Shown: positions 9,844 to 49,719 of the stretch, in pieces
Layout of the letters: each line of letters begins with the position of its first letter
Position numbering within the stretch: position 1 is the first letter of the stretch
NCBI GenBank assembly: GCA_001823535.1
Contig: MHUT01000011.1
Coordinates: 9,864-73,863 of the forward strand
Length of the DNA stretch: 64,000 nt
Source of the DNA: Candidatus Yonathbacteria bacterium RIFCSPHIGHO2_02_FULL_44_14
Lineage (GTDB): Bacteria; Patescibacteriota; Minisyncoccia; Phycocordibacterales; UBA1550
Direction of reading: 5' to 3'
Notes under the pieces: model-generated
The model's input: the letters and a program-made list of their open reading frames with translations, nothing else
Databases searched by the model: none
Told to the model about the DNA's origin: nothing
Made by a program: the position numbers and the translations under genes

Positions 9844-11283
9844 TTAAATTACTTCCACCATCACCATGTTCGTTCCTCCGGTATGCCCAAATGGCACGCC
9901 AGCCGCCACTACCACCTTGTCTCCCTTCTTTGCAAGCTTATGCTTGAGTACATAGGCACGAACAACCTTCATGACATCAGAAACATTCGTAAAGTTGTCA
10001 ATACGTGCGGGAAAACACCCAAACACAAGTCCGAGCTGTCGTATCACATGCCCCTTCGGGCTCATGGCAATGACCGGCTGTGCTGGGCGGTAGCGCGACA
10101 CCATACGTGCAGTGAGTCCCGACTCAGAAAGCGCGATAATCGCTTTTGCGCCGACGGTCGACGCAGTACTCACCACAGAAAAAGTAACAGCGTCCACGAC
10201 ATCCCTACGATGAGTGCTATTGTCAGTTTCAGATGTGAATATGTCGCCATAAAGCGCCTCGTGGTGTGGATAATTCTTTTCTGCAATCTCTGCAATATCG
10301 GACATCATCTTTACGGTTTCAACCGGGTATTCACCGAGTGCGCTTTCTTCTGAAAGCATTACTGCATCTGCTCCATCAAGAATTGAATTTGCGACATCGG
10401 ATACTTCAGCACGTGTTGGCACGGGCGACTTGATCATCGACTCCATCATTTGTGTTGCAACAATGACCGGCTTGCCAGCAACATTACATTTCTCAATAAT
10501 CATTTTTTGGAGAATCGGCACCTCTTGCGCAGGAACCTCTACTGCAAGATCTCCGCGCGCAATCATCACACCGTCAGTTTCAGCAATAATCGAATCGATG
10601 TTCTCGATTGCTTCACCTGTCTCGATTTTTGCGATAATTTTTGCTGTTGATTTTGCTTTTGTAAGAATAGCGCGCAGCTCACGAATATCGGATGCACGCC
10701 GGACAAACGAGAGTGCGACATAGTCGACCTTATGTTCAATACCAAAAAGAACATCCTTTTTATCTTTTGCGGTTAGACAACTGATCTTGAGGGATACCCC
10801 AGGGAGGTTTACCCCTCGACGACCCTTGATTTCGCCACCCACAATAATACGACATTTGATTTCAGTACCCACCACAGAGATTACATCAAACCGTTTTTTC
10901 CCGTCATCAAGCAAAATTGCATCACCTTTTTTAAGTTCCTTTGGCAAATCAGCATAATTCACATATGCCTTGCCTTCATCACCAAGGCATTTTTTTGTAG
11001 TGAGCGTAAAAATACCTCCCTTTTTAAGCGTCACACGCTCTTGATAAAGATCACCGATGCGAATCTTTGGACCTGAAAGATCTTGCAGGATTGCAGTTGG
11101 GGTGCCAAGCTTTTCTGCTGCAGCGCGAATATTTTTCACTTGCACAAGCGCACCCTCGTGAGTACCGTGAGAAAAATTCAAACGACAAACATTCATTCCC
11201 GCTTTTATAAGATTGGTTAGCATTGCCTCGCTTTCAGATGCGGGGCCAATTGTTGCTACGATTTTCGTCTTTTTCATTGTCAT
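9844..11283 (-). CDS. pyk: pyruvate kinase
   Basis: MKKTKIVATIGPASESEAMLTNLIKAGMNVCRLNFSHGTHE; start trimmed to ATG 11283 (MTMKK), the upstream ORF extension is unlikely. Confidence 0.9.
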   Translation of the reverse strand: MTMKKTKIVATIGPASESEAMLTNLIKAGMNVCRLNFSHGTHEGALVQVKNIRAAAEKLGTPTAILQDLSGPKIRIGDLYQERVTLKKGGIFTLTTKKCLGDEGKAYVNYADLPKELKKGDAILLDDGKKRFDVISVVGTEIKCRIIVGGEIKGRRGVNLPGVSLKISCLTAKDKKDVLFGIEHKVDYVALSFVRRASDIRELRAILTKAKSTAKIIAKIETGEAIENIDSIIAETDGVMIARGDLAVEVPAQEVPILQKMIIEKCNVAGKPVIVATQMMESMIKSPVPTRAEVSDVANSILDGADAVMLSEESALGEYPVETVKMMSDIAEIAEKNYPHHEALYGDIFTSETDNSTHRRDVVDAVTFSVVSTASTVGAKAIIALSESGLTARMVSRYRPAQPVIAMSPKGHVIRQLGLVFGCFPARIDNFTNVSDVMKVVRAYVLKHKLAKKGDKVVVAAGVPFGHTGGTNMVMVEVI

Positions 11284-20449: not shown

Positions 20450-20842
20450 ATGAACCATGTATTAATTGTTGAAGACGAAGATTTCTTGGTACGAGCATTG
20501 AAAGACAACTTGGTTTCCGATGGCTACAGCGTTTCTGTTGCCATGGATGGCGAGGCGGCTTTCGATGAATTGAAGAAGAAAACACCGAGCCTTATTTTGC
20601 TTGATCTTTTGCTCCCAAAAAAGAACGGGTTTGATGTATTGAAAGAAATTCGCCAGAGTCCGGAGTGGCAACTTATCCCTGTGGTCATTCTCTCCAACCT
20701 CGGCGAAGACTCTGAAATCAAGCGTGCGCTCGAGCTCGGCGCAAACGATTATTTCGTGAAATCGCAACATCCAATCCAAGAGGTGATGGAAAAGGTGCGC
20801 GAGTATCTGCAAGGGAAAGGTTCAACAAAGGGAGGAATGTAG
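20450..20842 (+). CDS. single-domain response regulator receiver (CheY-like)
   Basis: LIVEDEDF...LLDLLLPKKNGF...; no output domain. Confidence 0.85.
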   Translation: MNHVLIVEDEDFLVRALKDNLVSDGYSVSVAMDGEAAFDELKKKTPSLILLDLLLPKKNGFDVLKEIRQSPEWQLIPVVILSNLGEDSEIKRALELGANDYFVKSQHPIQEVMEKVREYLQGKGSTKGGM

Positions 20843-20863
20843 AATGTTGAATTTGGAACCATA

Positions 20864-20905
20864 AAGAAAGGGGGCATCGCCAAAGCCGATGCCCCCTTTC
20901 TTTAT
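20864..20905 (+). terminator. rho-independent terminator
   Basis: aaagaaagggggcatcg-ccaaag-ccgatgccccctttcttt + ttattt. Confidence 0.7.
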
Positions 20906-20928: not shown

Positions 20929-20953
20929 CACTTGGAGGCAAAGCCTCCAAGTG
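20929..20953. repeat. REP-like palindromic element copy 1 (cacttggaggc-aaa-gcctccaagtg)
   Basis: Perfect 11-bp inverted repeat immediately 3' of transposase stop. Confidence 0.8.
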
Positions 20954-20955
20954 AA

Positions 20956-21630
20956 TTATATTTCCTCTGGGTCCTCGCGTCTCTTCAAAATATCATCGAG
21001 AGACAACAAGGCGAACTTTTTATATTCAGCGCTATTTCGAAATTGCCCTAGGATAATTCCCTTCTCACAAATACCATCTGCCATTTTACCTTTCTCCGTA
21101 TACTCTCCCCAGCTTGATCTACTCTCCACCAACTTGGAGGTTGAGCCTCCAAGTTGGTGGACGCGGTCATTTAAATTTACATATGCACTCACGTGGAGTA
21201 GGTATTCATTTGAATCTATGTGGACAGCCTTAAACCTTCCCTGAAAAAGGGAGCCATTTCTTTTTTCTTTTTCATTAAAATACATCGTGTAACCAGTAGA
21301 CAAACGATGCATAAATTTTTCTACCCCACGATCAGCAGTCTGCATAAGAAGAAAGTGGTAATGATTAGCGTTCAAACAATACGCAACAAAATCCACCAGC
21401 AGCACTTCCTCTTCCTCCAACTTGGAGGTTGAGCTTCCAAGTTGCTTGTTAAAAGAATTTTGATAGATACTCCCTATCGGGTCAAGCACGTTGAATTCGA
21501 CCATACTCTGGAAAAACCTGTCAATGTCCGCTTGGTCTGAAAAAATATTTCTCTTATCAACTCCTCTGTTATAAATATGATAATACTCGCCTTCAATAAA
21601 TGCTGTTTTCCTTTGTGACATGCCATTCAT
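20956..21630 (-). CDS. Y1 HUH tyrosine transposase (IS200/IS605 TnpA or REP-associated RAYT-like, COG1943)
   Basis: YHIYNRGVDKRNIF; HuH-like NHYHFLL; catalytic-Tyr region GSLFQGRFKAVHIDSNEYLLHVSAYVNLN; start trimmed to MNGMSQ (first 9 codons of ORF come from the hairpin). Confidence 0.7.
   Translation of the reverse strand: MNGMSQRKTAFIEGEYYHIYNRGVDKRNIFSDQADIDRFFQSMVEFNVLDPIGSIYQNSFNKQLGSSTSKLEEEEVLLVDFVAYCLNANHYHFLLMQTADRGVEKFMHRLSTGYTMYFNEKEKRNGSLFQGRFKAVHIDSNEYLLHVSAYVNLNDRVHQLGGSTSKLVESRSSWGEYTEKGKMADGICEKGIILGQFRNSAEYKKFALLSLDDILKRREDPEEI
21126..21160. repeat. REP-like palindromic element copy 2, inside transposase ORF in frame (encodes HQLGGSTSKLV)
   Basis: ccaccaacttggagg-ttgag-cctccaagttggtgg, 15-bp stem. 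Confidence 0.8.
21418..21446. repeat. REP-like palindromic element copy 3, inside transposase ORF in frame (encodes KQLGSSTSKLEE)
   Basis: caacttggagg-ttgag-cttccaagttg, 1 mismatch in stem. Confidence 0.75.
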
Positions 21631-21635
21631 TGTAG

Positions 21636-21661
21636 CACTTGGAGGTTGAACCTCCAAGTGC
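21636..21661. repeat. REP-like palindromic element copy 4 at 5' end of transposase
   Basis: gcacttggagg-ttgaa-cctccaagtgc perfect palindrome. Confidence 0.8.
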
Positions 21662-21720
21662 TGGGTGTGCTTTTTTGTCTTGTAAACTGCTTGACTTACG
21701 GGGTATAATATTTAGGAAAT

Positions 21721-48972: not shown

Positions 48973-49056
48973 TATTTTATTAGTATACCACGCAGTTAGA
49001 AAAAAATAACACCAACTGTGTACTAACTCAGTTGAAGCCAGGCTTCAACAATGGTA

Positions 49057-49719
49057 CTAAAGCTTAAGAAGTAGATATAGATTGAGGGAAGTAAGGATTG
49101 GAATCGCAAAAAATAATGCAAACGGTGCCGCGATGAGAAATGACGCGGGCAGACTGACGTTGTTGAAGCCTGGCTTCAACAACGTCAGCAGGGCGAAGAA
49201 AACTGCAAGAGCAAAACTTAGTGGAACGAGAACCATTGCCCCTGGCCAGCCCGCAATTAAAAAAGCCAGGGCGATTATAGCAATGCCCCCCTCCTGAAAA
49301 AGTGCGGGACGATACTGTGCGTACAGCTTAAAAAACAAAACAAATAATCCCGTAATGAAAAATAGCGCGACGGTGCTCATAAAAAAATGCTGAAACGAAT
49401 AGAAAGCGAAGTATCCATGAGTACCACTGAATGCAGGTCGCATCCACTCGAGTAATGACGGAAATGGAACCTCAAGGGGAAGGGTAGACGAAAGAAATAT
49501 TTTTGTAAATTCACTTTTTCCCCAGACAACATACTGCCCCCATGTGGCAAAAATACCATACAAAAGGTGCAGTGAGACTGCGCCTAGCACGAGCCATTTA
49601 TAAGGAATACTTTTTAGCAAAAGTGGGCGAATAAAACGCACAACAACAAACATAAAAAAGATACCCCAAACAGTGAGGGCAATCGCATTAAAATTAGCTA
49701 ATAGAAAATTGAGGGACAT
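49057..49719 (-). CDS. polytopic membrane protein of unknown function in pilus operon (not PilD by motifs); carries an embedded 35-nt palindrome
   Basis: ~6 hydrophobic segments; lacks A24 prepilin-peptidase motifs. Confidence 0.45.
   Translation of the reverse strand: MSLNFLLANFNAIALTVWGIFFMFVVVRFIRPLLLKSIPYKWLVLGAVSLHLLYGIFATWGQYVVWGKSEFTKIFLSSTLPLEVPFPSLLEWMRPAFSGTHGYFAFYSFQHFFMSTVALFFITGLFVLFFKLYAQYRPALFQEGGIAIIALAFLIAGWPGAMVLVPLSFALAVFFALLTLLKPGFNNVSLPASFLIAAPFALFFAIPILTSLNLYLLLKL
49154..49188. repeat. perfect 17-bp-arm palindrome embedded in frame in the membrane-protein ORF
   Basis: ctgacgttgttgaagcc-t-ggcttcaacaacgtcag; a 9-bp-arm version gttgaagcc-a-ggcttcaac sits at 49031-49049 just 3' of the gene. 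Confidence 0.8.

Follow-up and report, generated by a model that had tools for sequence, protein, structure and literature searches.

Hairpin repeats flank, and lie in frame within, the genes of a RAYT-like Y1/HUH enzyme family in Patescibacteria

Four hairpins at a Y1/HUH gene

We describe here a gene for a Y1/HUH enzyme that resembles the REP (repetitive extragenic palindromic sequence)-associated tyrosine transposases (RAYTs), together with a short hairpin that is repeated four times in and around it. Both were found in a 64,000-nucleotide stretch of Candidatus Yonathbacteria bacterium RIFCSPHIGHO2_02_FULL_44_14 (contig MHUT01000011.1, positions 9,864 to 73,863), referred to below as the window, and the features of the locus are listed in Table 1. 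The hairpin reads CTTGG-N11-CCAAG, with one copy upstream of the gene, one downstream and two inside the coding sequence. When the window was searched with the pattern CTTGGAGG-N5-CCTCCAAG, allowing up to 2 mismatches, 4 sites were obtained compared with 0.02 expected from shuffles, and the looser foot ACTTGG-N11-CCAAGT returned the identical four sites from the whole 64 kb. This agrees with the four copies reported by a first-pass annotation, which had been made from the letters of the window alone. The loop TTGAN, which it had assigned to all of them, stands except for the downstream copy, where the loop is CAAAG and the unpaired AAA of the plus strand is TTT in the orientation of the gene. 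Folding the copies as single-stranded DNA gave the energies in Table 1, with z-scores from -3.6 to -8.0.

The minus-strand open reading frame (ORF) 20956-21657 reads through both internal hairpins without a stop, so the frame is kept, as had been claimed. The internal copies are translated as ...NKQLGSSTSKLEE... and ...DRVHQLGGSTSKLVESRSSW..., in which the 7-residue units are LGSSTSK and LGGSTSK. Internal hairpin 1 is located at the end of predicted helix B, ahead of the HUH strand, and internal hairpin 2 directly follows the helix of the catalytic tyrosine. The start codon was placed at one of two ATGs because homologues begin with M-x-x-RK; the upstream hairpin therefore lies before the coding sequence instead of covering its 5' end as first annotated, and is probably within the 5' untranslated region (UTR).

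Table 1. Coordinates of the gene and hairpins in the window, and the corresponding hairpin slots in related loci
Feature	Position	Strand	Remarks
Y1/HUH (RAYT-like) gene	20956..21630	-	224 aa; start at ATG 21630 or 21621
NHYH (HUH motif)	21355-21366	-	residues 89-92
Catalytic Tyr150	21181-21183	-	in predicted helix 141-152
Upstream hairpin	21634..21662, core 21638-21658		perfect 14-bp stem; -14.9 kcal/mol; 4-13 nt 5' of start codon
Internal hairpin 1	21418..21444, core 21421-21441 (one mismatch)		9-bp outer stem plus one A.C/G.T mismatch; -8.4 kcal/mol; in-frame codons Q63-L71 (QLGSSTSKL)
Internal hairpin 2	21125..21161, core 21133-21153		perfect 16-bp stem, loop 5; -19.3 kcal/mol; in-frame codons H158-V168 (HQLGGSTSKLV)
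Downstream hairpin	20929..20953, core 20931-20951		perfect 11-bp stem, loop 3; -12.4 kcal/mol; begins 2 nt past stop codon
Upstream slot (related loci)	about -40 from gene start		hairpin in 72/79 loci
Internal site 1 (related loci)	about +180 from gene start		hairpin in 54/79 loci
Internal site 2 (related loci)	about +455 from gene start		hairpin in 55/79 loci
Downstream slot (related loci)	just beyond stop		hairpin in 65/79 loci

The GGAGG of the upstream stem was considered as a ribosome-binding site and rejected, as it is 21 nt from the ATG and the stems of relatives are mostly GGAAG, GGCGG or GGACA. A promoter scan gave no sigma-70-like site upstream of this hairpin for the minus-strand Y1 gene. 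Terminator-like calls at both outer hairpins on the plus strand are weak because their T-runs are poor. A separate hairpin with a perfect 19-bp stem, bordered by A-rich and T-rich sequence (20861-20905) and lying between the convergent Y1 and response-regulator (20450-20842) genes, is probably a bidirectional terminator, and the downstream copy of the palindrome is therefore unnecessary for termination. The remaining long hairpins of the window resemble A/T-flanked terminators.

The encoded protein

The Y1 hallmarks pointed out in the first-pass annotation (YHIYNRG, NHYH, LFQGRF and YVNLN) are all present. Residues 79-152 match the Pfam family PF01797 (Y1_Tnp) with 29.7 bits against a cut-off of 23, and H90, H92 and Y150 are invariant among 114 homologues. 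Searches of the PDB with sequence only, using either the single protein or a profile of the 114 sequences, found no Y1 transposase. An AlphaFold2 model from the same homologues, with a mean predicted local distance difference test (pLDDT) of 76.9 and a predicted template modelling score (pTM) of 0.78, was matched best by Foldseek to 4ER8_A, the E. coli REP-associated tyrosine transposase with its REP hairpin (E 2.8e-4, probability 1.0), followed by the ISDra2 and IS608 TnpA structures. Judged by its sequence and its modelled fold, the protein is a Y1/HUH enzyme, and its gene is intact.

At the level of sequence it does not qualify as an E. coli-type RAYT equivalog, scoring 24.8 bits with the NCBIfam model REP_Tyr_transpos (NF047646), for which the cut-off is 80. 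Deletion of the two 7-residue units raised this score to 31 bits, with an alignment covering model positions 6-143 of 146, which supports the proposal that the two segments are extras relative to the canonical RAYT model; the Pfam Y1_Tnp score was not improved by deleting the hairpin peptides. The segments of at least 3 residues with pLDDT below 50 are 64-72, 160-165, a short one at 182-184 and both termini. The first two coincide with the hairpin-encoded peptides in the model, and this very low confidence does not fit the idea that a normally conserved region had been disrupted.

A layout shared by a family

More than 6,000 database proteins match the window protein. The 120 best matches are nearly all of 215-246 aa (one has 261 aa) and are 62-99% identical to it, and their named sources are Patescibacteria, e.g. 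Yonathbacteria, Kaiserbacteria and Paceibacterota. Both hairpin-encoded segments were present, at the same two positions, in 29/29 of the aligned top homologues. For the hairpins themselves, 80 genomic loci from species-representative genomes were scanned, 79 of them with a usable reference. A slot was counted when it matched the locus's own reference with no more than 4/21 mismatches; for a few of the 79 loci (e.g. L009, L039, L042 and L049) the automatic reference was a terminator-like hairpin of another kind, which makes the counts slightly imprecise. The four positions recur as slots (Table 1), all four being filled in 30/79 loci and three in 33/79. The internal copies are therefore not a recent colonisation particular to the gene in the window, contrary to what had first been thought.

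The hairpin core is invariably 21 nt long. Its outer foot, ACTTGG/CCAAGT, is found family-wide with the variants ACTTAG, ATTTGG and CGTGG, and the feet read CACTTGG...CCAAGTG or CAACTTGG...CCAAGTTG. The inner stem and loop are not conserved across the family, and at least 17 inner-stem types were distinguished. Internal site 1 is cleanly absent, leaving the protein 7 residues shorter, in a sub-clade (L027, L033, L051, L078 and others), and some intact genes, such as that of L027, have neither internal copy. Homologues lacking a segment, which the first-pass annotation had suggested looking for, were thus found for internal site 1 in this sub-clade but not among the 29 top homologues. Internal site 2 varies in position by 0-4 residues between loci and has a variable downstream linker. 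The gene lies 300 bp or less from a contig end in about 12 of the 80 loci (L001, L010, L025, L032, L044, L072, L080 and others); this excess over chance may be due to repeats or paralogues breaking assemblies.

Paralogues of the enzyme are 30-68% identical overall, and in 12 loci a second RAYT-like gene, 30-62% identical to the window protein, is present within 10 kb. Most of these second genes carry wholly different palindromes, e.g. ATGTCGGACAT..., TTGCCAAAGC... or TGTTTAGGT..., and the cases at 30-49% identity were seen at L010, L024, L028, L029, L065, L067 and L070. As the palindromes of the paralogues differ, each enzyme lineage has its own hairpin. Several second paralogues repeat the layout, with flanking copies and an in-frame copy near +180, and in that of L028 the in-frame copy comes directly after the HUH motif. 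The paralogues in the flanks have YIHLNP, i.e. Y---NP. The predicted loop that closes helix B is a permissive site used repeatedly.

The internal segments are DNA elements

The codons of the hairpin peptides differ from those of the genes in which they lie. Leu-2 is encoded by CTT in about 90% of cases, compared with 23% for leucine elsewhere in the same genes, Lys-8 by AAG in about 80% (30% elsewhere), and Leu-9 of internal site 2 by TTG in 80% (21% elsewhere). The residues follow the hairpin type (GGSTSK, GSPTSK, GGETPK, GHSVSK, GCPTPK etc.), both segments of any one protein vary together, and the untranslated flanking copies have the same sequence as the internal ones. The internal segments are DNA elements and not a peptide motif, because the codons are forced into the palindrome, the peptides are of low confidence, the copies match within a locus and their absence in the sub-clade is clean. 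At L206, the flanking copies have a perfect stem (GGGTG/CACCC) and the internal copies (at 10178 and 10457) retain a G.A mismatch (GGGGG/CACCC). A perfect stem would encode Cys there, and the mismatch thus appears to be a compromise between the constraints on the protein and those on the hairpin.

It had been stated in advance that segments found to be ancestral and conserved would speak against an origin from the REP-like element. Formally, they are conserved in this way, but the conservation is at the DNA level, and the codon bias, the compensating changes, the switches of type between genomes and the absence in the sub-clade mean that a REP origin is not refuted by it.

Concerted change of the four hairpins

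After correction for orientation, the central 11 nt are 95.4% identical between the slots of one locus and 70% of pairs are identical, while the same slot compared between loci gives 47.7% identity and 0.8% identical pairs; the within-locus value is somewhat inflated, as copies were detected by their similarity (no more than 4/21 mismatches) to the reference of their own locus. A Yonathbacteria orthologue with 82% identity has the same neighbours (large surface protein, Y1 gene, response regulator, PAS histidine kinase), therefore the gene itself has not moved, in keeping with vertical inheritance. All four hairpin centres nevertheless differ in concert between the two, being TTCAA / CTCAA / CTCAA / CTTTG in the window and CCTTG / CAAGG / CCTTG / CAAGG in the orthologue. 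At the upstream site of this orthologue (L081, ~9955-9995), a remnant of the window-type left arm and loop (TTTGGAGGTTCA) directly adjoins a hairpin of the new type that is complete, and this looks like the footprint of a unit replacement.

Relative to the upstream copy, the downstream copy is in the same orientation (+) in 28 loci and inverted (-) in 26, and no fixed orientation pattern of the four copies (e.g. + - + -) was found when it was sought. Asymmetric mismatches flip along with the loop, for example in L050, indicating that whole 21-nt units are copied in either orientation. Mosaic loci with two or three hairpin types were also observed (L003, L012 and L014), and paralogues from the same genome bear different types (L004/L008, L020/L077, L022/L061 and L205/L206).

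Dispersed copies and copies in other genes

Within the 10-kb flanks of the genomic loci, about 24 copies of the locus's own type were detected. Their density was 0.80 copies/10 kb at 0.16-1 kb from the gene, 0.25 at 1-3 kb, 0.17 at 3-6 kb and 0.13 at 6-10 kb, compared with about 45 copies/10 kb in the gene unit, a density about 350-fold that of the distal background. When metagenome contigs were scanned for exact matches to the variant of the window, it was found in at least 120 stretches, and 80 loci among the matches listed were analysed. Among these matches, 25 copies were in or adjoining a RAYT homologue and 52 of the 77 informative copies had none within 120 bp, of which 48 were on RAYT-free loci (at least 800 bp on both sides) and 4 had the gene farther off; a further 32 copies were uninformative. 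The palindrome, whose uniqueness to its locus had been named in advance as a point against the proposal, is unique to the locus within the window and is dispersed in related sequence. It occurs singly, as head-to-head dimers of 39-41 nt and as inverted doublets with a spacer of about 35 nt, and it flanks the gene in most relatives, all of which bears out the resemblance to a RAYT-REP partnership that had been proposed. One inverted doublet recurs on two metagenome contigs (L094, 2631-2710; L154, 1587-1666) and is similar to a REPIN (REP doublet forming a hairpin).

Half of the dispersed copies (26/52, again among the matches listed) are inside long ORFs, where they are read as LGGSTSK or LEVEPPS. 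The genes that host them, as far as Pfam matches or source names identify them, encode a class I aminoacyl-tRNA synthetase (I/L/M/V group), topoisomerase I (TopA), NAD-dependent DNA ligase (LigA), arginyl-tRNA synthetase, an MnmA-type tRNA-modifying enzyme, UvrC, TruB, a class V aminotransferase, a PMT glycosyltransferase, glycyl-tRNA synthetase (GlyRS) and enolase. In-frame copies within unrelated housekeeping genes are in the manner of Rickettsia palindromic elements (RPEs), to which the element had been likened. In one essential gene, that of an arginyl-tRNA synthetase (L135, 508-2490), three to four in-frame units occupy two sites, among them a head-to-head dimer (LEVEPPLGGSTSK) and also a tandem (LEVEPLNLEVEPPS). 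Relative to solved structures, the loop in enolase has about 10 additional residues, a comparison that is ambiguous because native enolases also have LGG there.

The GlyRS slot could be followed across orthologues, which read GS-LGGSTSK-SY, GS-LGGETAK-SY, GS-TGGGTTK-AY and GS-TSGETTT-AY and are of equal length. Two of the genes with 88% identity (L114 and L203) have perfect hairpins of the AGG type and the CGG type, respectively, in the same 21 nt; L204, 84% identical to L114, has a decayed hairpin and L202 (86%) has no palindrome. From these sequences, replacement within the slot looks a better description than simple insertion. Three own-type hairpins at L047 (4862-5562), 4.9-5.5 kb downstream of the gene, share a single open frame of 482 codons; this frame holds a WGEY motif resembling the one in the RAYT tail and may be a fused or degraded paralogue.

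Discussion

We consider it probable, though well short of certain, that the locus is a REPtron-like unit belonging to a Patescibacteria-specific family of REP-associated tyrosine (Y1/HUH) endonucleases, and that the in-frame copies are tolerated in two predicted loops of low confidence. The first-pass annotation was right in kind and wrong in proposing a local and recent colonisation of a conserved region. E. coli TnpA-REP and the TnpA of IS200/IS605 bind single-stranded DNA at hairpins and cut and rejoin it at defined sites, and such enzymes act best near their own gene. By analogy, we infer that the enzyme moves the hairpins; given the known chemistry of TnpA, copying or exchange driven by the enzyme is the most economical cause, as it covers concerted evolution, indifference to orientation and local enrichment together. 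The enzyme would bind the hairpin on single-stranded DNA and cut and rejoin at its foot, and this cleavage and rejoining would copy or exchange hairpin units. The gene and its surroundings would be the most heavily seeded, since the action would be strongest near its own gene. Copies would persist only where they are harmless, which within the ORF would be the two low-confidence predicted loops, and a 21-nt unit (7 codons, open in 5/6 frames) would preserve the frame. The slots could then be overwritten repeatedly by the currently active hairpin type, leading to concerted evolution.

A more specific mechanism, in which the enzyme catalyses a precise, length-neutral exchange of 21-nt cassettes at pre-existing slots, including those in essential genes and its own ORF, so that the current master type overwrites all copies, seems to us rather unlikely. 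If true, it would be a site-specific single-strand exchange whose substrate is embedded in the gene of the enzyme, with both inherited together.

Several observations weigh against the REPtron-like interpretation. REPs typically have a GT[AG]G guide tetranucleotide, and no GTAG, GTGG or CGTC tag was found at the feet of the hairpins. The score with NF047646 is far from its cut-off, and in the tyrosine motif YVNLND the Asn is invariant and the Pro of class 2 is replaced by Asp or Asn. Neither search pattern found a copy of the hairpin beyond the locus in the 64-kb window, which gives no local support; zero extra copies are unremarkable, however, because the distal density predicts only about 0.8. 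On a 170-kb contig, a dispersed AGG-type doublet matches the hairpins of neither resident RAYT exactly. In GlyRS, 7 codons have been replaced with the length unchanged, which is unexplained by simple insertion, and the inflation of the within-locus identity noted above also counts here.

Another explanation, which may coexist with the REPtron-like unit, is that the four hairpins are kept for a need of the gene, either as cis-regulatory sites by which its transcription or translation is self-throttled, or as seed copies that link enzyme and substrate during transfer. The positions are fixed in most of the 79 loci, the site near +180 recurs in distant paralogues with unrelated palindromes, the upstream copy is directly before the start codon, and the roughly 350-fold density of copies in the gene unit would also be expected. 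However, site 1 is missing in a sub-clade, both internal copies are missing in e.g. L027, site 2 shifts by 0-4 residues, the orientation is random, and identical units occur in unrelated housekeeping genes, where such regulation is not expected; we regard this explanation as unlikely, while worth keeping in mind. A role of the hairpins as RNA structures in the transcript, acting on mRNA stability, ribosome pausing or processing, is very unlikely. All four are probably transcribed with the gene, and REPs elsewhere are 3' UTR and mRNA elements (PMC3733652), but no excess of G.U-compatible over A.C mismatches, which would mark a hairpin acting as RNA or on one DNA strand only, was found on the coding strand in the four slots (8/9/10/10 against 10/10/6/11). 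The random orientation relative to the gene also argues against it, and no Rfam family came near threshold, a permissive search giving sub-threshold matches only on the neighbouring terminator.

The size of the 730-bp unit and its single gene would suit an autonomous IS200-like insertion sequence with the outer hairpins as its left and right ends, and so would the loci at contig ends and the second paralogues within 10 kb in 12 loci. This is nonetheless quite improbable, as the neighbours are unchanged in the 82% orthologue, paralogues of the same genome are merely 30-68% identical and have different hairpins, and single hairpins are also scattered where the gene is absent. The outer hairpins are identical and randomly oriented to each other rather than being distinct ends on the same strand, and the motif Y---N is unlike the Y---Q of IS200 transposases (PMC6006769). 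Double-stranded operators for a dimeric DNA-binding regulator would account for the perfectly symmetric half-sites, the constant 21-bp spacing and the conserved outer ACTTGG/CCAAGT. We find this highly improbable, because complementarity continues inward up to 1-5 nt from the centre and often outward to 16-23 bp, as is usual for hairpins but not for operators, copies are found inside essential genes, and the associated protein has, in the model, the fold of an enzyme that binds hairpins on single strands. Least credible of all is that QLGGxTSKL is a functional peptide repeat and the DNA palindrome incidental. H158, Q159, L160, G161, K166 and L167 are indeed invariant among the 29 closest homologues, but the codons are forced to the palindrome, the same sequence is untranslated on both flanks, other genes use other frames (LEVEPPS or LGGSTSK), the residues vary with hairpin type, and both segments have pLDDT below 50.

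Compared with known REPtrons (E. coli TnpA-REP, 4ER8; class 2 TnpAY1), the REPtron-like unit described here shares the Y1/HUH fold, a resident gene of low copy number with divergent paralogues, and a flanking hairpin that is specific in type to the gene copy and is also dispersed singly and as inverted doublets. It differs in that its hairpin is a perfect one of 21-25 nt without GT[AG]G and of very low genomic density, its protein has YVNLND and scores far below the curated RAYT cut-off, and its hosts are Patescibacteria. With IS200/IS605 TnpA it has in common the superfamily, the logic of a hairpin on a single strand and a unit of about 0.7 kb. IS200/IS605 elements (subclass 1.1) have Y---Q, about 150 aa, several near-identical copies per genome and distinct left and right end hairpins, whereas the window gene is a syntenic single copy with Y---N, 224 aa including a C-terminal tail, and identical end hairpins.

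Quentin, Siguier, Chandler and Fichant described in 2018 tnpA-REP genes whose reading frame contains their own REPs, and reported this as a unique feature of TnpAY1 subclass 2.4 (PMC6006769). In their classification, class 2 has the signature Y---NP, subclass 2.4 the motifs NH[IFV]H, WQ and YIxNNP with insertions between HuH and Y, and subclass 2.1 is reported without REPs (PMC6006769). The motifs NHYH, FQ and YVNLND, the SSW tail and the length of about 224 aa of the window protein resemble class 2, and by the table of that paper are closest to subclass 2.1 (PMC6006769). The window family is like subclass 2.4 (RAYT group 4) in having cognate REPs in its own ORF with the frame intact, in a peripheral variable region, and that subclass too is listed with a short insertion where helix B ends. 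It is unlike subclass 2.4 in having two slots, one at a fixed position ahead of the HuH strand and one behind the Tyr helix that shifts by only 0-4 residues, both of them retained throughout the family and homogenised with the copies on the flanks.

Intragenic REPs have been reported by Di Nocera et al. in 2013 in repair genes, tRNA synthetases, ligase and TruB, alongside the RPEs (PMC3733652). The similarity lies in the in-frame palindromes in housekeeping genes, with tRNA synthetases, DNA ligase, TruB and Uvr shared. In contrast to RPEs, the window-type unit has only 7 codons and no sequence relation to them, and its GlyRS slot shows length-neutral replacement with different hairpin types across genomes. 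REPs that lie in frame within the gene of their own RAYT, or within other genes, are therefore already known in kind. We did not find a description, in the literature searched, of two family-wide internal slots outside the HuH-Y interval, of homogenisation of four copies, or of a minimal unit of 7 codons that is replaced slot by slot in essential genes. Likewise, no paper linking Patescibacteria or the candidate phyla radiation (CPR) to REP, REPIN or RAYT biology was found in that literature, whose coverage was incomplete.

Patescibacteria have tiny, gene-dense genomes that are thought to be poor in mobile DNA. The results point to a widespread hairpin repeat system of low copy number in these bacteria, paired with an HUH enzyme that looks domesticated, which persists inside reading frames, in essential genes as well as in the gene for the enzyme itself. 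The repeated layout with genome-specific types could serve as a natural data set for the co-evolution of HUH enzymes with their substrates and for the homogenisation of short repeats. The system also accounts for the recurrent 7-residue segments of the LGGxTSK and LEVEPPS type in proteins of Patescibacteria, which can be a source of artefacts in alignment and annotation.

Other palindromes in the window

A second, unrelated pair of palindromes, GTTGAAGCC-N-GGCTTCAAC, is present in the window at 49031-49049 and 49154-49188 (2 matches compared with 0 expected). One copy is just 3' of the stop codon of the minus-strand ORF 49057-49719, which encodes a membrane-like protein of 220 aa, and the other is in frame within this ORF, with a 17-bp stem. 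This arrangement of one copy outside and one inside parallels the main locus, but there is no Y1 gene nearby.

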